Assembly (NCBI GenBank): GCA_963842525.1
Contig: CAWJGT010000007.1
Location: 32,001-96,000 of the forward strand
Reading direction: 5' to 3'
Source: an uncultured Holophagales bacterium
GTDB lineage: Bacteria > Acidobacteriota > Thermoanaerobaculia > Multivoradales > UBA5704
Length of the DNA: 64,000 nt
The notes below the pieces were generated by a model that worked only from the letters and a program-made list of their open reading frames with translations, was not told where the DNA came from and made no database searches. How positions within the stretch are numbered: position 1 is the stretch's first letter; the number at the start of each line of letters is the position of its first letter. The translations under genes were made by a program, and so were the position numbers. This document shows, in pieces, positions 4,189 to 35,836 of the stretch.

Positions 4189-4299
4189 AGGTCTTCAGCT
4201 TTTCTCAAGCAGTTCGCGGTACTCGGCGAGGCTCAGTATCACGGCCACAGGCCTACCATCCCGGATCACGATCTCGGGTGAGGTTGAGTTGTTCTCCAT
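4189..4299 (-). pseudogene. Truncated copy of the antitoxin at 24418-24621
   Basis: MENNSTSPEIVIRDGRPVAVILSLAEYRELLEK; 4189-4338 aligns to 24512-24660 with about 8 substitutions and 1 indel by manual count. Confidence 0.85.
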
Positions 4300-4562
4300 A
4301 GAAACCACCTCCCAAGCGAGTCTACCAGGGTTCTTGGGCATGCCGCGCGTGGCACTGCCAGGCACTTCTTGACGGCGGTGCCCTTGGACCCGGGGCCGCC
4401 GTCCTTTCTCACCTTCTCAATTGTCAAAGAGCCGGGCGCTCCGCCAGCATCGCGGGAATCGCCTTGCGGCGGTGATCCCGATCTCTCGGTCGATCGGCAT
4501 CATCACACCTTCTTCAATATGCGGTAGCCTGCTACGCTCGACGGCCGAAGTCAAACGAGGCC

Positions 4563-6179: not shown

Positions 6180-7052
6180 CTATGCCCTCTCTTCGTAGTC
6201 GTCCGACACAGAGGCCCGAAATACCTTGAGAATCTCTTTCTCTGTACGATCGCATACGCCCGCTAGTTCACCGCACGAGGCCTCATTGGCAACGCTGAAA
6301 GCAATGTACTCTTTAAGGGTACGCAGGACTTCAAGTGAGACCACAGCCAAGTAGTTCACATGAGGTTGTACGTTGTTGTCTCGAATTTCAAACGTACCGC
6401 CATCAACTTCAAGATAGTGAAACAGGAGATCGGTCCAGCTGCCATGTATCGTATGAGACCCCATCGACTGAATGGCTATATACCCCTCCGGCGGAAGGTC
6501 CAGATCTCGGCAAATAGAGAAGAAGTCATGCAACGGCTTGCTTGAGCGGACTTCGTCCTCGGTCATTCCTGCGAGTTCGATGCACTGAGCTATGGACTTA
6601 AGCATGCGGTCTTCAACTATCCAATCTCGCCCTCCGCGGTCTGTAATTCGGGATTTAACTTGATCGTGAAGCCTCAGGTCCGCACGTAGCCCATCCGCCA
6701 TGTAACGCTTGAAGAGTCCCGGCTCGTTACGCTTCATTAGCCAGCAGGCCTTGATTGCCGACTCACAAATGCACCGAGTAAGAGCGGCAATCACTTCTCC
6801 ATGCTTCCGCTCCGCCGCGAGCTTTACTGCTGCTAAGATCAGGCGGCTGCACCTGTTGATGAGTCCCCGAATCACGGCATACTCAAGCTCCGGGTGTTCG
6901 ATAACACCAGGAGTTCTGGGGCCTATGGTGCTCAAATGAATGGCAAGCAACCCCACATGGCGACACAACTCAAACGTCGGACGAAGCCAGTCTCTATCCG
7001 AAGAGAACCGGTCCCATTCGGAATCTTCAAACCTTGGCGGCTCTGGCAGCAT
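6180..7052 (-). CDS. DUF5677-like hypothetical protein, lower GC
   Basis: 290-aa ORF with R-x-x-x-E-S-A-I and GSHTIHGSW motifs; GC visibly lower than the flanks. Confidence 0.7.
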   Translation of the reverse strand: MLPEPPRFEDSEWDRFSSDRDWLRPTFELCRHVGLLAIHLSTIGPRTPGVIEHPELEYAVIRGLINRCSRLILAAVKLAAERKHGEVIAALTRCICESAIKACWLMKRNEPGLFKRYMADGLRADLRLHDQVKSRITDRGGRDWIVEDRMLKSIAQCIELAGMTEDEVRSSKPLHDFFSICRDLDLPPEGYIAIQSMGSHTIHGSWTDLLFHYLEVDGGTFEIRDNNVQPHVNYLAVVSLEVLRTLKEYIAFSVANEASCGELAGVCDRTEKEILKVFRASVSDDYEERA

Positions 7053-7130
7053 CTGGCTTCCCTTATGGCGCCCAATCCTGACTCACATATTCGCCGACAC
7101 CGTGCCCACAGGCGTATACGGCAGCCGCCC

Positions 7131-7361
7131 TCAGCGCCGCCGCCGCGCCGCCTTGACCGCGGCCCGACCGAGCGCCGCCGGGGTGGCATGGAACGCCGTC
7201 TCCATTCCCTTCCTGGTCGCCGGCGTCTGCATGCGCTCGAGCAGGATCACCTGTTCCCGCCCTAAGCTTTCCACAACCACCACGCTTCCGTGCTGAACCT
7301 TGTCCACAACCTCCTGGGGTTTCCTGGCAAGGTCGGGTTGGGAGATCGTGGTCCGGGTCAT
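7131..7361 (-). pseudogene. Chimeric Phd-like antitoxin remnant
   Basis: MTRTTISQPDLARKPQEVVDKVQHGSVVVVESLGREQVILLE matches VVESSGREQVILLE at ~24940-24980, then continues with an unrelated tail. Confidence 0.55.
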
Positions 7362-7389
7362 TGGATTGTCCTCGGACCATAGTCTGGCC

Positions 7390-7555
7390 GAGCGACGCCA
7401 CCGCCGGGGGGTTCCTCCGGGTAGGGGAAATCCGGCGCGCTTCCAGCGAGGTCCAGGAACTCCTGGCTCCATCTCCGGCCCGCAGGTTCGAGGACGACCC
7501 TCTCGCCTTCGCGCGAGATCAATCCGGCCTTGAACAGCTTCGCTCTCTGTGACAT
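7390..7555 (-). pseudogene. VapB/AbrB-like antitoxin with internal deletion
   Basis: MSQRAKLFKAG|LISREGERVVLEP...WSQEFLDLAGSAPDFPYPEEP lacks the usual SQAVRLPK segment; RBS GAGGAGG. Confidence 0.6.
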
Positions 7556-7693
7556 GGCACTCCTCCTCGGCATAAAGTACCAGATTCTGGAGTCCTCGAC
7601 CCCGTTTCCCGGTTGAGCGCCCATGCTATGATCCTGAGCCGTGTAGCAGGCTATGAAGCTGACTTCATGTTTCTCTCGATAGAGTCGATTCCC

Positions 7694-7940
7694 ATGCCGA
7701 AGATCATCGGTGTCACCGACCTTCAGCGACGGTTCAAGGCGGTGCTCCACGAGGTGGCCGAGGAGCATGTTTCGTACGTTTTGATCCGGGGAAGCCAGCC
7801 GCGGGCGGCCCTGATTCCCTACGAGGAGTTCCTCCGGTATCAGGAGCTCACGGAAGGCGATGTCCTCCGGCGCTTCGGGCGCCTTCGTGCGCGGATGGCC
7901 GAAGCCAGCGCGAGCCTCAGTGAGGACGAAGTGGCTGCTG
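7694..7940 (+). pseudogene. Phd/YefM antitoxin, 3' end lost, no toxin partner
   Basis: MPKIIGVTDLQRRFKAVLHEVAEEHVSYVLIRGSQPRAALIPYEEF. Confidence 0.65.
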
Positions 7941-20276: not shown

Positions 20277-22121
20277 GGCAGGGCTGCAGTTTACCTGGCA
20301 GAAGCAGCCACCCACTCCTTCACACTCTTCTCCAACAAATCGAGCGGCAGTTGCCCATGGCCCAGGATGTGGTCGTGGAAGGCACGGATGTTCGAACCGC
20401 GGCCCCAGCTCTTTCTCGGCATAGCTACGCAGCTCCCGGATCTTCAGCTCGCCGATCTTGTAGACCGGCACCGTGCCCGGCTGCGCGATGATGCGATCGA
20501 CCTCGGTCTCGATGTCGTGCGCGGTCTTGGCGCAGTTGGCCGTGTAATAGTCGATGGCCTGCTGGCGGGTCCACCCCTTGGAATGCACGCCGGTGTCGAC
20601 CACAAGGCGGATCGCCCGCCAGACCTCGTTAGTGAGCTGGCCGAACTTCGAGTAGGGGTCCTTGTAGAGGCCTAGGTCGCTCCCCAGGCTCTCGGCATAG
20701 AGGCCCCACCCTTCTGAAAAGGCGGGATAGACATCCCACTTGCGCCAGTCCGGCAGCTCCCCCAGCTCCTCGACGAGGGCGTACTGGAGGTGGTGCCCGG
20801 GCACGGTCTCGTGCAGGGTGAGCGCCTCCATCCCCCACTTCGGACGCGACTTCAGGTCATAGGTATTGACCAGGAACCAGCCCGGCATACCTCCGGCGAG
20901 CGAGCCGCTGTTGAAATAGGCCGCCGGCGCCGACTTCTCGACCATGGCTCGAACACCATAGGGGAGCCGCGGCAGCCGGCCGAAGAGCTTGATGAGCTCC
21001 GGATCGATCCTCTTCGCGATGTCGCGGTAGCCGGCGACCAGGTCCTCCGGCTTGTCGTAGAAGAAGCGCGGGTCGGTGCGCAGAAAGTGGGAGAACTCCG
21101 CGAAGCTCCCTTTGAAACCGATCGAGACGATGAGCGCGTCCATCTCCTGGCGGATGCGTTTCACCTCGGCGAGGCCGAGCTGGTGGATCTGCTCGGGCGT
21201 CAGATCGGTGGTCGTATGATTCCGCAGCGCATAGGCATACCAGGCCTTGCCGTCCGGCAGGTCGCTCATGGCGATCGACTCGCGGGCGCCCGGGACATAG
21301 GTGTTCGCGAGGAAATCGTGGTACCTGCGCAGGGCCGGCTCCACTTGCTCGGTGAAGAGCCGGAGGGCCTCGCGCCGGAGCCGTTCCCGGTCTGCCGCGG
21401 GAATCGTCTCGGGGATTTTCTGGAACGGCTTCAGGATCGGGCTTTGCCAGGGATCTTTTTGAGGATCCGCGGGGAGCAGCCTCCCGATCCGGTCGGGCAC
21501 GCCGCGCAGAGTCACCCGCGGCGGTGTGATCCCGGCCTCGAGCCCCTTGCGGAGCTGCGCAAGGGTCTGGTCCGTCCACTCGGCGTAACCTTGTAGGCCC
21601 GCCAGCAGGATCTCGTAGTCGTGGAGGGTGTACAGGTCCGACGAGGACTCCGCCGAGCCGGAGCCCATTGTGCTGATCAACAGGTACTCGCTGCGGAAAG
21701 GCTCCAACTCATGGAAGCGTTCCCCCTCGATCCGCATCTCCAGGCGGCGGCGGGCCAGATCGTAATGGACCTGCTCGGCCGGCGTGAGCCGCGAGCGGTC
21801 GATGGAGGAGAGGGCCGCCATCTCCAGCCGGGTGATGCGGCGGATGAGCGCAATCGTCTCCGGCGAGAGGTCGGCCCAGCGGTCTTCGTACCCCGGAACG
21901 CCCACGGCGGCGGCGAGATCGGGAAACGACTGCAGCCGGGCGGCCCAATAGAGCTCGAAGAACCGCTTCAGCCGCGCGCTCTCGCTCTCCTGTCCCCGGG
22001 TGGCCGCGAGCTGTTCGATCTGCCGCGCCGACTCGATGAGCTCCGGCGGCGTGGCGGCAGAGACCGGGGCTGTGGAAGCGAGCAGGAGGATCGCCAGGGT
22101 GAGGGTCGTCTTCTTCTTCAT
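20265..22121 (-). CDS. DUF885 family secreted protein; frameshift near the C-terminus
   Basis: Signal peptide, HETVPGHHLQ, FSEGWGLYAE, RLVVDTGVH, YKIGELKI. Confidence 0.92.
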   Translation of the reverse strand: MKKKTTLTLAILLLASTAPVSAATPPELIESARQIEQLAATRGQESESARLKRFFELYWAARLQSFPDLAAAVGVPGYEDRWADLSPETIALIRRITRLEMAALSSIDRSRLTPAEQVHYDLARRRLEMRIEGERFHELEPFRSEYLLISTMGSGSAESSSDLYTLHDYEILLAGLQGYAEWTDQTLAQLRKGLEAGITPPRVTLRGVPDRIGRLLPADPQKDPWQSPILKPFQKIPETIPAADRERLRREALRLFTEQVEPALRRYHDFLANTYVPGARESIAMSDLPDGKAWYAYALRNHTTTDLTPEQIHQLGLAEVKRIRQEMDALIVSIGFKGSFAEFSHFLRTDPRFFYDKPEDLVAGYRDIAKRIDPELIKLFGRLPRLPYGVRAMVEKSAPAAYFNSGSLAGGMPGWFLVNTYDLKSRPKWGMEALTLHETVPGHHLQYALVEELGELPDWRKWDVYPAFSEGWGLYAESLGSDLGLYKDPYSKFGQLTNEVWRAIRLVVDTGVHSKGWTRQQAIDYYTANCAKTAHDIETEVDRIIAQPGTVPVYKIGELKIRELRSYAEKELGPRFEHPCLPRPHPGPWATAARFVGEECEGVGGCFCQVNCSPAARA

Positions 22122-22235
22122 CGCATACCTCCGACGGCCCGGGATCTTACAGCCTGGTCAGCAGACCAACTCACACTGAGCCAGCGTCAGCTCCGCAAAA
22201 CCAGTGTCAGCTCACGCTGGTCCAGCGTCCCCCAC

Positions 22236-22480
22236 CCGGCCCAACGGGCCGGGAGAACGGAGCCCGGGGCTGAGGCCGAAGGCCGATGCCCTGGGCAGAG
22301 AGGCGATCAACCCCCGCGGCCTGAAAGGCCCGCGAGGGCTTCTGCCGGAGCCGGCTCAGCTCTCGGTTCAACCCAGAGGTCTCGCGGCCTTTCAGGCCGC
22401 ATCACCGTGGGGCCTGTTGACCCAGGGTATCGGCCTTCGGCCTCAACCCTGGGCTGGATTCTCCCGGCCCGTTGGGCCGG
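22236..22480. repeat. ~245-bp composite inverted-repeat (REPIN/BIME-like) element
   Basis: ccggcccaacgggccgggaga...tctcccggcccgttgggccgg enclosing gaggccgaaggccgat/atcggccttcggcctc and gcggcctgaaaggcc/ggcctttcaggccgc. Confidence 0.85.
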
Positions 22481-22575
22481 CTTGGCTGCCATGGGGCTGC
22501 GATTCATCGCCGACTTTCCCAGAGGCTCCCATACTTTTCCGTACGCGCTATGCTCTCGCGCCGAGGGGCGCGACG

Positions 22576-22750
22576 ATGTCTACTGCGACGAGCCAACGTG
22601 ACGAACATATCGACCTGAAAGTCTCCCAGGATCTCACCGAGCACGAGTCCCTGACGTTGACCCGTCGTGATTGGGAAGCATTCCTGGCAGCCCTGGACGA
22701 CGCTGACCGGCCGCGCCCGCGGCTCGCGGCGGCCGTGCGCCGACTGAGGA
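22576..22750 (+). pseudogene. DUF1778/TacA-like antitoxin with internal deletion
   Basis: MSTATSQRDEHIDLKVSQD|LTEHESLTLTRRDWEAFLAALDDADRPRPRLAAAVRR; the central RHH helix is missing. Confidence 0.6.
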
Positions 22751-22788
22751 GCCGCCTCATCCATCCGGTCCCGGCTGGTCCTGTTGGG

Positions 22789-23352
22789 TCACCGTCCAGG
22801 AAACCGCCGCCGGAGCGCCGTGACGAAGGCCCGGTCGGCCCGGTGTGAGACCAGCTCGAGAGGGGACCGGCCGCGCTTCCAGGCGAGCCAGAAGGCCAGG
22901 GCGAGCAAGACCAGGCTCAGGACGATATTGGGCCAGGCATTCAGCTCCCACTGGCTGCTCCAAGCCCATTGGGCGCGGCTGGAAAACGGGAGGAGATAAG
23001 GGATCGGCCACGGTGAGCCATCCGGCCCGCGCGAGCCTGCCAGGTCGCCCAGAAGGTGGAGGTGGAAGGTGACAAGACAGAGGGCTGCGGTGAGCCCCCG
23101 GCGGCGCCCCAGCGCAAACCCCGCGACGGCAGCGAGCAGGCCGGCGCCCAGGTTGTGCAGCAGCACATGATGGAAGCGGGAGAACCAGAGAAGCGGCTCC
23201 GCCCATCCTCTCGTGGCAATCTCCGCCGCGAAGCCGAGTCCATCCAGATCGGGCGCCACGCCGGCGAGAGTCACCAGAGCCCGGTCGCGCCGATCGAGCT
23301 GAGCGGCTTCGGCGACCGTCCATGACACCAGAAGATGCGTTATCGGATTCAC
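22789..23352 (-). CDS. Membrane-bound metal-dependent hydrolase (YdjM/DUF457-like)
   Basis: MNPITHLL, APDLDG, HHVLLHN, HLHLLGD. Confidence 0.85.
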   Translation of the reverse strand: MNPITHLLVSWTVAEAAQLDRRDRALVTLAGVAPDLDGLGFAAEIATRGWAEPLLWFSRFHHVLLHNLGAGLLAAVAGFALGRRRGLTAALCLVTFHLHLLGDLAGSRGPDGSPWPIPYLLPFSSRAQWAWSSQWELNAWPNIVLSLVLLALAFWLAWKRGRSPLELVSHRADRAFVTALRRRFPGR

Positions 23353-23413
23353 AGGGGAACTTGAACGGGAGACTCAATCCTTGGCGGGTAACAAAGCATT
23401 TGTCTTCACCCGC

Positions 23414-23487
23414 AGCAACGCTTCTGGCGGTGAGCGGCGGAACCGCGCTATTGGCAGTTTCCGCCCGCTCGACCTCGACTGTGGTAT
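23414..23487 (-). other. Degenerate integron attC-like site
   Basis: On the minus strand ATACCAC AGTCGA GGTCGAGCG GGCGGAA...TTCCGC CGCTCACC GCCAGAAGC GTTGCTG, with an extra C in the first inner box as in attC. Confidence 0.6.
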
Positions 23488-23499
23488 TACACGCTGCCT

Positions 23500-23679
23500 C
23501 TACCGATTATCCATCTGAGTCGTGCATCCCACACAACTAAAAAAGGTATATGTGCAGTTGTGGGTGCACCCGTATGAACAGTAGGCCGACTCTCCTCCTT
23601 GTACCTGGGCCAACTTCCTACCATTGAGAACGGACAGCGTCTCCTTCTGTAAACGCAGCTTCTTGAGCGCTTTCTTCAT
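23500..23679 (-). CDS. Double-glycine RiPP (lanthipeptide-like) precursor, 59 aa
   Basis: Not in the ORF track. MKKALKKLRLQKETLSVLNGRKLAQVQGG|ESAYCSYGCTHNCTYTFFSCVGCTTQMDNR; RBS AAGGAG. Confidence 0.85.
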   Translation of the reverse strand: MKKALKKLRLQKETLSVLNGRKLAQVQGGESAYCSYGCTHNCTYTFFSCVGCTTQMDNR

Positions 23680-24170
23680 GGATCAATTCTCCTTGTGAAA
23701 CGTGTAACCTCTGTCTCACAGATTCGCCGTCACCCCGCGCACAGATTTCTGCGACACAACCTTCCGGTTGACTCCGCTGCCGGACGAAAGGTGTCGAGCG
23801 TGCAAGGTGCTTAATCTCTTCATAGAACAAGCTACACCTCTTCCTAATCCGCGTCAAGACTGGCGAGGCGCTTGGATAAGCATTCTGGCTGGCCCTGTGC
23901 CTCGAAAGTCGCAACTACGTCATGCTCGACGAGCGAAGGAAGTCGGCCAGATAGCATCTGACCCTACGTGCGCTTCGTGTTTCAGTCAGACGGGAAATTC
24001 TTGTGCGTCTGAGAAGATAGACCGGGGCTGGCGCAAAGGATCGATCTGCTGCACGAAATCCCGGGCGCGACGAGGGTCAGCCCGCGCCAAGACCAGGAGC
24101 CCGCCTTCGGGCGGTGCCAAGCACTCCTTCGGCAGACTTCCTCTCTCTTGGTCGGCCACTCCCCAGCTCG

Positions 24171-24425
24171 TCATCGATAAACATCGCGACGATGGCCGGC
24201 ACGATAGACTCGCACTGCCCTGGCTTCGTCGAGAATCTCGTAAAGAACACGATAGTCGCCAACGCGTATCCTGTAGTCCCTCTCCGTGCCGGAAAGCTTG
24301 CGGCAGCCGGGCGGCCTCGGCTCATCGGCCAGGGCTCGGATCTTCTCGAGGATGCGATCGAAGGTTTCGGGAGACAGGCGCTTCAGATCCCTCTCGGCCG
24401 GCTTGGCGAGAAGGATCTCATACAT
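24171..24425 (-). CDS. RelE/ParE family toxin
   Basis: MYEILLAKPAERDLKRL...PRPPGCRKLSG..YRIRVGDYRVLYEI..GHRRDVYR. Confidence 0.92.
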   Translation of the reverse strand: MYEILLAKPAERDLKRLSPETFDRILEKIRALADEPRPPGCRKLSGTERDYRIRVGDYRVLYEILDEARAVRVYRAGHRRDVYR

Positions 24426-24621
24426 CCTGGGAGCGCTCGGCAAGGAAGTCGTCGAGGCGCCGGAACTCCAGTGGCTTCTGGCGCATCTCCTCCAGGCACT
24501 TCAGCGCCTCCAGGTCTTCAGCTTTCTCAAGCAACTCGCGGTACTCGGCGAGGCTCAGTATCACGGCCACCGGCCTACCATCCCGAAGCACGATCTCGGG
24601 CGAGGTTGAGCTGTTCTCCAT
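24418..24621 (-). CDS. Phd-like antitoxin, cognate of the RelE toxin
   Basis: GRPVAVILSLAEYRELLEKAEDLEAL; overlaps the toxin start. Confidence 0.85.
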   Translation of the reverse strand: MENSSTSPEIVLRDGRPVAVILSLAEYRELLEKAEDLEALKCLEEMRQKPLEFRRLDDFLAERSQDV

Positions 24622-24667
24622 AGAAACTACCTCCCAAGCGAGTCTACCAGGGTTCTTGGGAGCCCGG

Positions 24668-24983
24668 TCAGTCCACCTTTAGCGCTGCGGCGACCTCGGC
24701 ACGCGCTTCTTCCAGGGTGGCCGGCCCGAAGCGCAGTGGAATGCCAAGCCGGTGGAAGCGCTCCTGCAGCTCGAAGCGCGAGAGGGAGAGGGAGCTCCGC
24801 GGTCTTGCCGAGACTGATCTCATCGTCCAGATAGGACTGCAGGATTCCGATCGCCGGATCATCTGTCTCCTTGTCGCGTTCTCTTGGATCGATGGCGCAC
24901 AAGGCCAGTGCGCGAAGGAGACGAAAATCCAGAGGCTCGAGGAGGATCACCTGTTCTCTCCCGGAGCTTTCCACGACCGCCAC
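24668..24983 (-). pseudogene. Phd/UPF0175-like antitoxin, 5' truncated, with a frameshift
   Basis: VVESSGREQVILLEPLDF...YLDDEISLGKTAEL|SLSRFELQERFHRLGIPLRFGP. Confidence 0.6.
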
Positions 24984-25224
24984 GCTTCACAGCGGGTCAG
25001 CGATGCGATGTCGAAGGGGCGCTTGACGTCCATACAGACCATGATGCACACTGGAGATCTGTATGTCCATACCCAAATCGCTTGCGATAGGAACGGCATC
25101 TGCTTCGGATGGGAAGACCTATGAAGGCTGAACTGCTTCGGCGCCTCTCCTGGGGTTTTCGGGGTATCGAGCCCCTCATGCGTGCCTACATCGGGCAGGG
25201 GCTGCGGAAGGACCTCGCGCTGCT

Positions 25225-25326
25225 GCCCGGGCATGAATGCCCGGGCTAGAAACAGCGCCGGGTGAACCCGGCTTCAAGCCCCATTCATGGGGCGCTGTTC
25301 ATAGCCCGGTGATTCATCGCCGGGCT
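25225..25326. repeat. REP doublet (REPIN-like)
   Basis: gcccgggcatgaatgcccgggc ... agcccggtgattcatcgccgggct with internal hairpins. Confidence 0.75.
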
Positions 25327-25371
25327 TTCCTCCAGCAACAATCACCATCCCGGTTCGGCGCTCCCTGCCGC

Positions 25372-25652
25372 GCGGACCGCGGTCCCTTTCATACGGACCG
25401 CGAAACACGGTCCGGTCTCACGGTCCGTGCCGCAGGGACCGTGCTCCCTGCGACAGCGAGCCTGAGTCCGGTCAGACGGACCATGGTCCGCGCGACACGG
25501 ACCGCGAAACCAGTCGCGTGTCGGCAGGTCATCTGGCAGGACCCACGGTCCGTGTGACGCGTCTCGCGGTCCGTGTGAGGGGGACCGAGAGTCCAGATCG
25601 TGGTTTCGCGGTCCGCATCGCGCGGAGTCTCGGTCCTCGCGCGAGGACCGCC
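25372..25652. repeat. Degenerate repeat tract rich in GGACCG/CGGTCC
   Basis: More than 12 GGWCC-containing motifs in both orientations, e.g. acggaccgcgaaac twice and cggtccgtgtga twice. Confidence 0.6.
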
Positions 25653-25732
25653 GGCGCTCCCAGGGCGCTGGGGCAAGCGGCGGTCCGCCTCATCCATCCG
25701 GCCCCAGGTTTCCGTATATCCTCAGGGCGGAC

Positions 25733-26857
25733 TTGCCCCGGGAGGTCTCCTTGGCCGCACGCATCCAGCTCCGCGCCCTTGTTTTCGTCCTGGCGGCGGC
25801 CCTCGCCCTGTCTCCGGCCGCCGGAGCGCACGAGCTTGGGAAGGTCCAAGTCTATGCCACCTTCCTGGAGGACGGCACCTATCGGGTCGAGCTGGTGGTC
25901 GACGAGGAGCACCTGACTTCGCAGGACGTGGGCGGGCCGGCGGGGGACACCCGATATGGACCGATCCAGGGGTTGACCGGTGAGGTCGACCGGCGGTTCG
26001 GACGCCTGTTCCGCTCTCTCGTGGACGGTGCGACGATCTCTTTCGACGGCCGGCCTGTCGAGCCCGAGGCCGAGATGGTGCCGCCGGACCCCGATGCGGT
26101 GCCGGGCCGGATGACGCTCCGCCTCCACGGGCCGATCCCGGGCGGAGCGCGCGCCTTCACCTGGTCCGAGTCCGTGCCGGTCGGCCCCTATCCGCTGGTC
26201 CCGCAGAACGAGGGGGATGAGAGCGCTGTCTGGCAGTGGCTGGAGGGAGGTGCCGCGAGCCAGCCCTTCTCGCTCGCGGCGGCGGTGATCCCGCTGAGCC
26301 GGACGGAGGTCGTCGTCCAGTATCTGAAGCTCGGCTTCACCCACATCCTGCCGAAGGGGCTGGACCATATCCTCTTCGTGCTCGGTCTCTTCCTTCTTTC
26401 GCGGCGCCTCAAGCCGCTCCTTCTCCAGGTGACCGCCTTCACGATCGCCCACACGGTCACCCTGGCGCTCAGCATCTACGGCGTGGTGACTCTTCCCTCC
26501 TCGATCGTCGAGCCGCTGATCGCCCTGTCGATCGTTTTCGTGGCGGTCGAGAACATCCTCACCTCGGAGCTGCGGCCGTCGCGGATCGCCCTGGTTTTCG
26601 CCTTCGGCCTGCTCCACGGGCTCGGCTTCGCGGGAGTCCTTTCCGAGCTGGGCCTGCCGCGCTCGGAGTTCCTCCCCGCGCTGCTCAGCTTCAACCTGGG
26701 CGTCGAGGCAGGGCAGCTCGCCGTGATCGGCCTCGCCCTGCTGGCGGTCGGGCTCTTCCGCAACCGGATCTGGTACCGCCAGGCGGTCGTCGTCCCCGCC
26801 TCCTGCCTGATCGCGCTGGTGGGGTTGTACTGGTCTGTGCAGCGCGTTTTCTTCTGA
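25733..26857 (+). CDS. HupE/UreJ family membrane protein
   Basis: LGFTHILPKGLDHILFV, FTIAHTVTL, FGLLHGLGFA, FNLGVEAGQ. Confidence 0.9.
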   Translation: MPREVSLAARIQLRALVFVLAAALALSPAAGAHELGKVQVYATFLEDGTYRVELVVDEEHLTSQDVGGPAGDTRYGPIQGLTGEVDRRFGRLFRSLVDGATISFDGRPVEPEAEMVPPDPDAVPGRMTLRLHGPIPGGARAFTWSESVPVGPYPLVPQNEGDESAVWQWLEGGAASQPFSLAAAVIPLSRTEVVVQYLKLGFTHILPKGLDHILFVLGLFLLSRRLKPLLLQVTAFTIAHTVTLALSIYGVVTLPSSIVEPLIALSIVFVAVENILTSELRPSRIALVFAFGLLHGLGFAGVLSELGLPRSEFLPALLSFNLGVEAGQLAVIGLALLAVGLFRNRIWYRQAVVVPASCLIALVGLYWSVQRVFF

Positions 26858-26863
26858 TCTCCG

Positions 26864-28144
26864 CTACGGCTGCCTTACCTCCAGGCTGTTGCCGCGCCAC
26901 TCGATGCGCCAGAGCGGATCGCCCCCGACGATGGGCAGCGCGCTCTCCGTGCCTCGGAACCGCGCGACGATGCGGTCCGGGAGCTCCTCCACCTCGTCGG
27001 GCGGCGAGGCGCCGACGCCTTTGAAGGGAACGGCACGCAGGGTCGACCATTTGCCGTCCACGGTCACGGAGGTGCTGGTGTGGGCCGGCTTGTTGCTGTT
27101 GCGGGCCACCTTGTGGTGCATCTGGCGCCCGCCGGTGGTGCCGATCAGGACGACGTCATAGTCCTCCCGGAGGGGAACCGTCTGGCCTTTGAAGGTCAGG
27201 AATCGGTCACGGATGGCCGGGACCGCCGAGGCATCGCCTTCCACGACACGGCGCAGCAGTTGCCGGTCGTCGTCCGTCAGGCCCCAGAGCTCCGCTGGGG
27301 TGTCGGATTCATAGGGTGCGGCCTTCTTGGGCTTCTGCGCGCCGCCGGAACGCTCGAGAGACAGGCCGATCATCGTCAGGCTTTTGGTGATGTCCTCGAC
27401 TTCGGAAACCTTCGTGGGCCGGCCGTTCACCCTGACCACGCCCTCGCCGTCCAGGAAAAACGCCGGGCCATCGGGGAGGGGCAGCTCGCGTTGATACCGC
27501 TTGAACTTCCGCGGCAGGTTGAGCGCCCACGCGACGACCACGCCGACGAGAGACTGCCCTCCGGCCACGGCCTGGTTCTGCCGCTCCCCGGCCATCGCGA
27601 CAGCCGCGCCGGATGGATTGAAGCGGGTGTGTGAAGGCACATCGCGGAGCTCCCCTCCGAGCACCGCCTGGCCTCCCGTGATCGGGGAGGGCACGGTAAG
27701 GAGCGCCTGCCAGGCCCAATTGGCGCGCAGGGCGGCGTCGATCAGCTCGAGCGCATCCGCGTCTCCCGCCGCCCGGGCCTGCCGGCGGGCCTCCAGCCAG
27801 GCCGCCTCCTGGCCCGTCGTGTAGAGCAGCGAGCCCAGCTCCATCCCCCAGAGGCCCGTGGCGAGCCACGTCTCCGCCAGCTCCTTGAAGAAGCCGAACC
27901 TTCCATTGGCCGCTTCCCACGTGGGGCGGAAGTTGGCGGAGCCGGGATGATTGACCCATCGCTCGCGGATCGGCGATCCGGGCTGGTCCAGCGCGGGAAT
28001 GTGGAACGGGCCCGGGTCGCGGCCGATGAGCGCATTCAGGAGCGCGGCATCTCCCAGCGTGCGGCCCTCGTTGAATTCTGTTACGACGTTCCTCGCCACG
28101 ATCACACCTCCTGGGCCGGGCGGCCCGGAAAAACAGTCGCTCAA
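26864..28144 (-). CDS. Hypothetical protein
   Basis: 426-aa ORF with protein-like composition; no family recognised. Confidence 0.65.
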   Translation of the reverse strand: MSDCFSGPPGPGGVIVARNVVTEFNEGRTLGDAALLNALIGRDPGPFHIPALDQPGSPIRERWVNHPGSANFRPTWEAANGRFGFFKELAETWLATGLWGMELGSLLYTTGQEAAWLEARRQARAAGDADALELIDAALRANWAWQALLTVPSPITGGQAVLGGELRDVPSHTRFNPSGAAVAMAGERQNQAVAGGQSLVGVVVAWALNLPRKFKRYQRELPLPDGPAFFLDGEGVVRVNGRPTKVSEVEDITKSLTMIGLSLERSGGAQKPKKAAPYESDTPAELWGLTDDDRQLLRRVVEGDASAVPAIRDRFLTFKGQTVPLREDYDVVLIGTTGGRQMHHKVARNSNKPAHTSTSVTVDGKWSTLRAVPFKGVGASPPDEVEELPDRIVARFRGTESALPIVGGDPLWRIEWRGNSLEVRQP

Positions 28145-34072: not shown

Positions 34073-34312
34073 GTGATACCGCTCAAAGTGCAATTGACCG
34101 AGGACGATCTCAAGTTCATCGAACAGGCGTGCTCCACTCTGCATTACCGGAGCCGCAGCGAGTATCTGCGCGAGGCCATTCAGAAGAAAATCGAAATGGA
34201 TCGCGCACGCATCCGTGAGCTAAGACGCCAGGAGGCCATGAAGGCGTACGGCCGCGGCCACCTGGAGGACGCTTTCGAGGAGATTGCCGGAGAAGATTTT
34301 GAGGACCGGTGA
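34073..34312 (+). CDS. Ribbon-helix-helix antitoxin
   Basis: RBS AGGAGG and GTG start; KVQLTEDDLKFI...SRSEYLREAI; extended -10 TGGTACTAT upstream. Confidence 0.85.
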   Translation: MIPLKVQLTEDDLKFIEQACSTLHYRSRSEYLREAIQKKIEMDRARIRELRRQEAMKAYGRGHLEDAFEEIAGEDFEDR

Positions 34313-34655
34313 CATCTACCGGGTCCAGCTCGACCCAGTGGTCGGGCATGAGATGAACAAGACCAGACCGGTCGTCGTGCTCAATCCCGGCGACGCCAAG
34401 AGCCTTCGGTTGGCAATTGTGGTGCCAGTGACCGCGTGGAAACCGCACTGGGAAGGCAACGCGTTCTTCCTGACCCTGGACCCCAAAGCCCATCCCGAAC
34501 TGACCAAGAAGTCTGCTGTCGACTGCTACCAGATTCGGGCTCTCAGCCACGACCGGTTCCAGGAGAGGCTCGGTGAGTTGAGCCCGGCCGAGGTCGAGAC
34601 GCTCAAGCGGGCTCTTTCCCTGATCCTCGACATCGAAGCCCGCCACTGCGTGTAG
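34299..34655 (+). CDS. mazF: PemK/MazF family endoribonuclease toxin
   Basis: GDIYRVQLDPVVGHEMNKTRPVVVL, VVPVT, DCYQIRALSHDRF. Confidence 0.92.
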   Translation: MRTGDIYRVQLDPVVGHEMNKTRPVVVLNPGDAKSLRLAIVVPVTAWKPHWEGNAFFLTLDPKAHPELTKKSAVDCYQIRALSHDRFQERLGELSPAEVETLKRALSLILDIEARHCV

Positions 34656-35163: not shown

Positions 35164-35836
35164 TCACGAGGAGGCGGCCTCAACCGCCCGGGCGACGATG
35201 TAGAACACGGACCGGCTGGCGCGGCCCCCCAGCCGCTTCGCCCACGAGGTCTGGAGCTGCGGCCAGTCCTCTTCCGGTAGCATACCCCTCTCCATGACCT
35301 CGAACCCCGCGTCTCTATATCTGGGTGCGAGGGTTACATCGATGTACGCCACCGACATGGGCTCCAGCCCGAGACGTTCCACCTCGGTTCGGTCCCGGTC
35401 AGGGTCGAGCCCGAGGATCACCTCCAACAGAGCCCCGGGCGAGCAGACGCGCCGCAGGTTCTGCAACGCCAGCCTGTCCCCTGCGGCCACGGCGCGCAGC
35501 AGGCTGCCCCACGGGAAGTGGACGTGCACCTCGTCGGCGATGCCGTCCAGCTCAGCCGGCAGGTTCTCGACCGCTGCCTGGACGAACAGGGCATTAGGAA
35601 GGCCGCCTTTCGACGGCTTCCTGTGGATCTTCTCCGACACCTTCTCCAGGGGGCGCGGGCTGGCGTCCACCCCGATGTAAAACTTCCTCGGGTTGTGCAG
35701 GGCCGACTGGTACACAAAGACACCGTCCCCGGTCCCGATGTCGATCACCACCCCCTCGCCGGTAGGGGGCGATGAGCTCGTGGAAGCCGTTTCGGTCCAG
35801 TTATCAGGTGGTCCTGCCACGGATCAGCTTCAACAT
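35164..35836 (-). CDS. 16S rRNA m1A1408 methyltransferase (KamB/NpmA-like); 5' end disrupted
   Basis: VIDIGTGDG, IGVDAS, KPSKGGLPNALFVQAAVENLP, HFPWGSLL, TSWAKRL. The family-like start MLKLIRGRTT**LDRNGFHELIAPY has two stops and a frameshift; an alternative in-frame GTG lies at 35820. Confidence 0.8.

Follow-up and report, generated by a model that had tools for sequence, protein, structure and literature searches.

Integron cassettes are the smallest known gene-exchange units and are expressed from a shared promoter. Among ribosomally synthesized and post-translationally modified peptides (RiPPs), the prochlorosins (ProcA/ProcM) comprise many dispersed precursors with a conserved leader of the Nif11/NHLP type, hypervariable Cys/Ser/Thr cores and one promiscuous LanM; to our knowledge, integron mobilisation is not part of the prochlorosin picture. 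Class I lanthipeptide clusters instead group lanA with lanB and lanC. The locus described here lies in a 64,000-nt stretch of DNA from an uncultured Holophagales bacterium (assembly GCA_963842525.1, contig CAWJGT010000007.1, positions 32,001–96,000), the whole of which was analysed and is called the window. In comparisons of glutaminyl-tRNA synthetase (GlnRS), the closest named matches of the organism (81–87% amino-acid identity) come from metagenome-assembled genomes that carry the labels Thermoanaerobaculia or Thermoanaerobaculaceae, in the phylum Acidobacteriota. It holds an open reading frame (ORF) for a 59-residue lanthipeptide-type precursor that appears to be packaged, with no enzyme gene, as the cassette of an integron remnant. 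Positions are those of the window unless a contig is named.

With the cassettes of sedentary chromosomal integrons the locus shares the parts of its attC site (PMC5027507, in excerpt), an ORF packed between junction and attC, insertion at the attI G|TT behind a cassette promoter and, in relatives, an integrase gene (intI) co-oriented with the cassettes (PMC4889954, in excerpt). Unlike them, it has no intI and a single attC, its cargo is a RiPP precursor without enzymes, and its platform is present in 16–20 copies in this one genome. Like the prochlorosins, the precursors of this genome (27 in all) are dispersed, share one conserved leader and have hypervariable Cys/Ser/Thr cores; most are remote from synthetase genes, and the genome encodes one LanM. 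Unlike in the prochlorosins, the window leader is of the class I type (NCBIfam NF038153), and seven of the precursors lie beside stand-alone LanC genes rather than relying on a single LanM. With class I clusters the locus has in common the NF038153 leader and a core rich in Cys, Ser and Thr, and the genome encodes LanC- and LanB-type domains; in contrast to such clusters, no lanB or lanC occurs within the 64 kb or on the contig, and lanB-type and lanC genes are nowhere adjacent in the genome.

The palindrome that follows the precursor stop codon is, judged by its alignment with other copies and its predicted fold, a real attC site. An nhmmer search with the window hairpin gave 11 matches in the genome, and aligning these copies with their flanks revealed a larger repeated unit of 81–89 nt; attC sites range in size from ~57 to 141 nt. 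Across the copies, the 5' half of an outer stem of ~11 bp has RYYYAAC-like boxes at its end (GCCTAAC, GCCCAAC and ACCCAAC among them), and the 3' half opens with GTTRRRY-like boxes (GTTAGGC, GTTGGGC, GTTCGCC and others), paired in single copies as GCCTAAC/GTTAGGC or GCCCAAC/GTTGGCC, with the AAC triplet of R'' present in all 9 other aligned copies. The spacers measure 7–8 and 10–13 nt, and the inner stem of 16–17 bp carries two bulged A on its 5' arm. The window site has an outer stem, spacers of 13 and 11 nt, a loop, and an inner stem of 16–17 bp whose '' arm bears two bulged A; described attC features are R''/R' core boxes, an L stem, unpaired spacers, bulged bases and a variable loop (PMC5027507, in excerpt).

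A covariance model (R1) was built from six other genomic copies, with the window copy left out. Its structure comprises 28 pairs. Among the six copies, 88.1% of cells are paired and 6 pairs show compensatory changes; this pairing was reached by none of 500 shuffles, and slid controls gave 30–48%. R1 scored the window attC at 46.5 bits, with E values of 4e-7 in a 253-kb search and 1.6e-5 in a whole-genome search, both rough because calibration was short, and the site was the sole match in the window on either strand (E up to 5). The attC likeness reported by an initial annotation of this DNA is therefore upheld, but not the distance of ~12 nt that it gave between stop codon and palindrome, since past the stop the outer stem begins at 3 nt and the R'' box at 7 nt.

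The attC site closes a cassette whose layout leaves room for little besides the gene: a 26-nt 5' untranslated region with a Shine-Dalgarno sequence (AAGGAG, 23689-23694, 9 nt upstream of the ATG), the precursor ORF, which fills the cassette, 7 nt, and attC up to the G of R'. Because the bases after the upstream G|TT stem from the cassette's own attC, they should pair with its R'' box. Counting the G of R', the 10 nt after the attI G are complementary to the R'' of the cassette itself at 10 of 11 positions (8 Watson-Crick and 2 G-U), as against 6 of 11 for the integrated R'; 6 of the 949 GTT-starting 11-mers in the window reach a pairing of 10. Over 29 cassettes from this genome and from two relatives (G009 and G032), mean pairing was 8.97 for the cassette's own sequence vs 7.90 for the integrated one, with several at 11/11. 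The attC site, the attI junction and the boundary complementarity together indicate that the precursor ORF is packaged as a genuine integron cassette, in agreement with the initial annotation, which had called it packaged like one. Past attC, the array ends at a resident gene, whose 187-aa product has no match in Pfam or NCBIfam.

On its other side the cassette abuts an integron platform, that is, an attI region with a cassette promoter (Pc). The ~353 nt upstream of the ORF gave 20 nhmmer matches in the genome, the window copy and a 46-nt fragment at 7078-7123 counted, and 16 copies by BLAST at 69–82% identity. BLAST against 40 relatives, five of the same genus included, found none, and nhmmer profiles of platform and hairpin found no matches at loci of relatives, apart from a promoter match of 58 nt in G009. 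Wherever the 3' end of a copy is complete, it stops at ...GAGG|TTA/G, after which the sequences fully diverge. The best conserved part of the alignment is a TTGACG-N17-TAGAGT-like block, from which we infer the Pc promoter of the window copy. Unrelated ORFs start 12–47 nt past the junction in most copies (at 135–143 nt in two and 319 nt in one), and their G+C content at third codon positions (GC3) is 0.46–0.73, compared with 0.8–0.95 for most house genes of the window. Several platforms are followed by R1 sites: five after the copy at C9:1074050 (contigs of this genome, G000, are numbered with C, the window lying on C7), three after C3:667048 and two after C19:416980. These arrays cover C9:1074.6-1077.6 kb, C3:664.4-666.2 kb and C19:418.2-419.3 kb.

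Two platform copies lie ~110 nt downstream of C-terminal remnants of intI, which read '...IYTHVLNRGGRGV...' and then stop. The intact integron of G009 shows the same order, namely the intI stop, TTGACG-N17-TATGAT, the GAGGTTGG junction and the first cassette. At its 5' end the platform is bounded by a (C)TTRRRY-like sequence directly after the intI stop; the longer copies begin at a (C)TTAYAC-like sequence, exactly at the intI stop codon in two of them. The window copy lacks the first ~125 nt of the unit and adjoins a ParE/Phd pair instead of intI; R1 found no attC match near this pair, which we treat as context rather than as cassettes. Present in 16–20 intI-less copies in this genome only, the platform may itself spread as a unit. 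Copies lie at C11:139025, C11:173933, C11:178878, C14:49254, C1:776097, C3:666790, C9:1074050, C13:7331, C19:416980, C19:516855 and C25:511650, among others. The fragment at 7078-7123 (-) is a second platform 3' end in the window (nhmmer 30 bits, model positions 302-347); a DUF5677 ORF (6180-7049, (-), GC3 0.57) begins 29 nt past it, and no R1 attC was found at that locus.

In the wider class, 86 of 201 sampled genomes, a tally that includes four genomes flagged as unpublished, have an intI passing TIGR02249. G009 (same family) and G032 (same order) encode integrases of 470.7 and 440.8 bits, with six and five R1 sites, respectively, directly behind them on the intI strand, so that intI and cassettes are co-oriented in both. 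This orientation defines the 'inverted integron-integrase' group (PMC4889954, in excerpt), and Acidobacteria are one of 11 taxa with an attC model of their own (PMC8352920, in excerpt). Of 41 genomes searched, 22 contained R1-type sites; within the same family, the figure was 17 of 24. With a custom IntI profile, no match within 5 kb of the locus exceeded 5 bits, and genome-wide the profile found fragments and a recombinase lacking model positions ~178-235, with no intact intI. Since the locus lacks intI, and the genome any intact copy of it, the locus is best described as a one-cassette integron remnant; the lack of an intact intI, together with an R'' triplet that reads AAT instead of AAC, means that in this host the cassette has probably lost its mobility.

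The recombinase just mentioned, a tyrosine recombinase of 325 aa with three identical copies, was considered as the integrase and rejected, given the missing model positions and its place within a 2.9-kb repeat. That repeat (98% identity; C3:356327-359214, C9:1899673-1902559, C25:537197-539904) encodes the recombinase and a 398-aa ORF that, from its N-terminus, we take to be an IS91-type transposase; in two places attC arrays start 2–3 kb downstream of it. Separately, a 2.1-kb unit in three copies 99.7–99.8% identical (C3:360394-362489, C25:512272-514368, C11:179875-181969) starts at an attC-like R1 match, and each copy encodes a 442-aa ORF that, read by eye, resembles a group II intron reverse transcriptase. 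These units are reminiscent of attC-targeting group IIC introns.

The peptide encoded by the cassette has the leader, VQGG site and Cys/Ser/Thr core that the initial annotation had ascribed to it (Table 1), and a curated model now places the leader in a family. Over positions 1-32 of the model NF038153 (lant_leader_L1a, class I lanthipeptide), it scores 26.8 bits (E 4.1e-6; cut-off 22), and none of 14 control genomes exceeds the cut-off. By leader family, the ORF is thus read as a lanthipeptide-type precursor. The only other NCBIfam matches at E ≤10 were NF046113 and TIGR04149, a family of RiPPs modified by radical S-adenosylmethionine (SAM) enzymes, at 19.1 bits (cut-off 25); no Nif11- or NHLP-type leader family appeared among them. 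In Pfam, Bacteriocin_IIc alone matched, at 14.9 bits, under its cut-off of 27.1. The best match among the 40 relatives reached 62% identity in the leader only (G003). The core holds Cys and Ser/Thr residues that, as predicted from composition, could form thioether rings.

The precursor ORF is single-copy in the genome, and both of its flanks are repeated (BLAST, nhmmer). The low local G+C content that the initial annotation had remarked on is borne out, at 0.51–0.55 across 23300-24049 (300-nt windows) vs 0.62–0.73 in the flanks and 0.678 in the genome. GC3 of the ORF is 0.63, and the median of its paralogs is 0.83 (n=26); the low value fits acquisition of the cassette from outside.

Table 1. 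Features of the cassette, its platform and their immediate neighbours in the window.
Feature	Position	Strand	Description
Gene cassette	23419..23707	(-)	289 bp; bounded by attI G|TT and attC R' G|TT
Precursor ORF	23500..23679	(-)	59 aa; ATG start, TAG stop 23500-23502
Leader, aa 1-29	23593-23679	(-)	contains KKLRLQKETL; VQGG at its end
Core, aa 30-59	23503-23592	(-)	5 Cys and 8 Ser/Thr in 30 residues
attC site	23409-23496	(-)	88 nt; covariance model R1 and alignment with 9 other copies
attC R'' box	23486-23492	(-)	GTGTAAT; outer stem, hand-placed from alignment
attC L'' arm	23454-23472	(-)	
attC L' arm	23431-23446	(-)	
attC R' box (integrated)	23413-23419	(-)	GTTGCTG
attI junction	23705..23709	(-)	GGTTA; crossover between G 23708 and T 23707; conservation ends there
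Integron platform (attI region and cassette promoter)	23705..24057	(-)	5'-truncated copy without intI
Putative Pc promoter	23829..23857	(-)	-35 TTGACG 23852-23857, 17-nt spacer, -10 TAGCTT 23829-23834
ParE toxin	24171-24443	(-)	Pfam ParE_toxin 46.6 bits; upstream of platform
Phd/YefM-like antitoxin	24418-24621	(-)	PhdYeFM_antitox 28.7 bits, just below cut-off 29.8
Resident flanking gene	22789..23352	(-)	187 aa; GC3 0.79; starts 57 nt past attC

With respect to maturases the precursor is an orphan. The initial annotation had seen no lanthipeptide synthetase, radical-SAM or peptidase-transporter gene in the window, and a scan of 69 window ORFs likewise found no LanB, LanC, LanM, radical-SAM or C39 transporter domain, hence no TIGR04149-type maturase nearby. 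On the 146-kb contig C7 as a whole there was no match to LanB (PF04738, PF14028), LanC (PF05147) or C39. Elsewhere in the genome, where the annotation had suggested that maturases be sought, they are present: at least eight LanC genes (C23:365101-366213, for instance), one LanM (915.7 bits, about C9:1008967-1012188), LanB-like genes, of which one (C9:1525542-1528112) encodes an 857-aa protein and adjoins a gene for a luciferase-like monooxygenase, a trio of APH-like kinase, HopA1-like protein and LanC-like ORF (C9:1262-1266 kb), and two ATP-binding cassette (ABC) transporters with C39 peptidase domains.

The same genome contains 27 small ORFs with this leader and Cys-rich cores, that is, 26 besides the window precursor. 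Eleven of the 27 exceed the NF038153 cut-off, and seven, spread over five loci, have stand-alone LanC genes as immediate neighbours. The window leader is identical to those of its paralogs at 9–17 of 30 positions, and at 14 of 30 to a LanC-adjacent pair on C23. Next to one paralog is a radical-SAM gene of the PA0069 family (483.5 bits), a family not designated as a peptide maturase. Many of the 27 genes are followed by GC-rich hairpins unrelated in sequence, one with a T tract. Because the genome holds a precursor family with the same leader, and lanthipeptide enzymes elsewhere, maturation of the window peptide in trans, as proposed in the initial annotation, is plausible.

The five LanC mini-clusters (C23:365101-367085, C3:878879-881722, C3:1181992-1183627, C9:133018-134400 and C3:1348187-1349649) each consist of one or two stand-alone LanC genes and one or two L1a-type precursors, with no adjacent dehydratase; just upstream of the C3:878879 precursor is a 933-aa ORF without a match in Pfam or NCBIfam. 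Four genes, one LanB and three LanC (C3:1391806-1394854, C3:1348527-1349649, C25:89264-90363, C3:245553-246591) are split over at least two frames. Such genes are either pseudogenes or products of indel errors in the assembly, which bears on which of the enzymes work.

Pairing of a precursor with an attC site was then looked for beyond the window. None of the 26 other paralogs has an adjacent attC by R1, the nearest R1 sites being at distances of 4.5 and 6 kb. In G003, the peptide's closest relative belongs to a tandem pair, behind which stands an ordinary hairpin; an attC lies at a distance of 1.7 kb, and this relative does not sit in a cassette. A possible second precursor cassette occurs in G010 (C1:58000-72000), where a low-GC 253-aa ORF, an attC (69.8 bits, 7548-7631) and a 48-aa peptide with an NF038153 leader (32.8 bits) follow one another at 6768-7815 of the locus, the peptide beginning 38 nt past the attC in the same orientation. 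A search for the attC of the peptide itself found none; the best candidates pair at 9 of 11 positions and score ≤12.9 bits with the covariance model. At 28 public attC loci (R1 threshold E ≤0.001; 80 of 124 stretches matching an attC core pattern were examined), no leader-type ORF was found within 700 nt, the best leader match having an E value of 0.88. The cross-check of leaders against attC sites in the 40 relatives covered the best 150 of 205 leader matches and 127 attC matches.

The products of other cassettes are mostly proteins of unknown function and include AHSA1, Nmad2 and a DUF4258 toxin-like protein, among others; of 22 other cassette ORFs scanned, 13 had no Pfam match. Full-text literature searches, covering listings and abstracts, gave no report of RiPP or lanthipeptide precursors in integron cassettes. 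The suggestion made in the initial annotation, that precursors are mobilised as cassettes and so give a combinatorial library, is not borne out by these counts (0 of 26 paralogs, 0 of 28 public loci, and a G003 relative outside any cassette). One solid case and one ambiguous adjacency show that such packaging can happen, not that it is common. As far as our searches reach, a precursor-only cargo is new for a known kind of element.

On balance we favour, with some but not strong confidence, the explanation that the locus is the remnant of a chromosomal integron with one captured precursor cassette, whose peptide is handled by host machinery. The ancestral integron would have had intI and cassettes co-oriented, and its survivors would be a non-coding platform (Pc-like promoter and attI, 23705-24057) and one cassette (23419-23707) carrying only the 59-aa lant_leader_L1a precursor and its attC. 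Capture would have occurred by IntI-mediated attC × attI recombination at G|TT, probably from a donor of lower GC, and the cassette would since have been fixed in place because the genome has no intact integron integrase. Being first behind the platform promoter, the gene would most likely be transcribed from there. As the leader falls within the diversity of the 26 resident paralogs, recognition by the host's leader-directed machinery seems most likely; the stand-alone LanC genes, the LanB-like gene and LanM, all elsewhere in the genome, are the candidates. The sequence would be completed by leader removal after the Gly-Gly site and by export through either of the two C39-peptidase ABC transporters. 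The cassette structure, the leader family, the lack of local maturases and the presence of distant ones are direct observations; transcription, modification, export and activity of the peptide are steps that we infer from them. More doubtful is that the cassette is a working 'substrate-only' RiPP module, in which a traded precursor gene would be transcribed from an integron promoter and matured by leader-compatible lanthipeptide enzymes of the recipient.

Several results weigh against the favoured explanation at one or another of its steps. At the attC site, the R'' triplet AAT is one base off the conserved AAC, with GTT kept in R'; the integrated R' (GTTGCTG) is a poor GTTRRRY, the reconstructed circular R' being GTTACAC; and R1 aligned the window R'' out of register because the 5' spacer is 5 nt longer there, the boxes being placed by hand instead. 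In the platform, the -10 hexamer TAGCTT is weak and a consensus promoter scan made no call, as the hexamer fits TATAAT at only 3 of 6 positions. None of 21 TIGR02249 matches in the genome is above the cut-off of 265 (the best has 146.8+93.3 bits), and none lies on C7. With one attC and no intI, the locus is therefore neither a 'complete integron' (intI together with one attC or more) nor a 'CALIN' (at least two attC without intI, within 4 kb) as IntegronFinder defines them (PMC4889954, in excerpt). A search of ~5.8 billion clustered proteins returned the precursor itself as the sole match, which leaves the core without relatives. No RNA run matched 23300-24100, and four metagenome runs contained 0.04–0.08 of the words of this region. 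Finally, no LanB gene stands beside any of the 27 precursors, and one LanB gene is broken over several frames.

Some of these results are what would be expected if the cassette were real and the peptide a dead passenger, a fossil precursor without enzymes that the host leaves unmodified or untranslated. We consider this possible though on the unlikely side. A window and contig without maturase, a unique core and a weak -10 hexamer would all suit such a fossil, the lack of an intact intI and the eroded R'' would make the cassette old, and the absence of the same arrangement from the 26 paralogs and 28 public attC loci means that no recurrent selection is visible. Against this, the ORF is intact, with an ATG, a good Shine-Dalgarno sequence and a leader still above a curated cut-off; it stands first behind a promoter that is conserved across platform copies; and compatible leaders occur in a large precursor family of the host, which has the enzymes as well. 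Alternatively, the product could be a Gly-Gly peptide outside the lanthipeptides, whether a class II-type bacteriocin or signal, unmodified or disulfide-bonded and exported by C39 transporters, or a TIGR04149-type radical-SAM substrate. The weak TIGR04149 and Bacteriocin_IIc matches, the Gly-Gly site followed by a Cys-rich core, the two C39 ABC transporters and the lack of a neighbouring LanB throughout the family could be read in that sense. We judge it improbable, since both alternative models score below their cut-offs and NF038153 above its own, LanC genes are the immediate neighbours of seven of the 27 family members, and the sole radical-SAM gene next to a paralog is of the PA0069 family, not designated as a peptide maturase.

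The palindrome itself could be a mere terminator or generic repeated hairpin with an accidental likeness to attC. The hairpin was initially read as a terminator, when the inner stem was viewed alone, without AAC/GTT at its base, and unrelated hairpins were seen behind the paralogs; this reading was discarded once both flanks proved to be repeated (blastn, nhmmer) and the wider alignment exposed the outer boxes. The GC-rich hairpins behind many of the 27 precursors, a fold z-score of only -2.2 for the region and an Rfam scan empty at the site are in keeping with a terminator; that scan (21000-27000, E ≤10) gave 9 weak matches, none at attC, and Rfam may hold no attC family. The flanking R''/R' boxes with covarying pairing among copies, the arrays that the same type of site forms behind true intI genes, and cassette 5' ends that match their own R'' are difficult to reconcile with it. 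In addition, no T tract follows the window hairpin and a terminator scan made no call. We therefore disfavour the terminator and consider it very improbable indeed.

The window contains further repeats and genes of note. Palindromic repeats at 25223-25325 (~100 nt) and 22231-22492 (~250 nt) occur in many copies on both strands and also in all five same-genus genomes, at 70–96% identity, and have the look of miniature inverted-repeat transposable elements or repetitive extragenic palindromes. The stretch 25350-25700 is dense in GGACCG/CGGTCC palindromes. Part of the region of the Phd-like antitoxin upstream of the platform (24512-24660) is duplicated 20 kb away at 4189-4338, at 94% identity, and the window also encodes a TacA-like antitoxin domain (22204-22848, (+)) and a PemK/MazF toxin (34284-34652, (+)). 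A 217-aa ORF at 35164-35817 (-) matches Pfam NpmA, a 16S rRNA (adenine1408-N1)-methyltransferase, at 208 bits (cut-off 60). The NpmA family is known from aminoglycoside resistance, and the host of the window is an environmental member of the Acidobacteriota.

RiPPs split recognition, which belongs to the leader, from product, which belongs to the core, so that a precursor gene alone suffices for a new compound, given compatible enzymes. A precursor-only cassette combines this with the exchange of integron cassettes and provides a directly testable means through which soil bacteria could exchange the cores of their peptides. Searches of cassette metagenomes with leader models could yield new RiPP cores. 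If the cassette does work as a 'substrate-only' module, integrons can diversify the cores of natural products with no enzyme being moved. The locus suggests that lanthipeptide-type precursors can be traded as plug-in parts.

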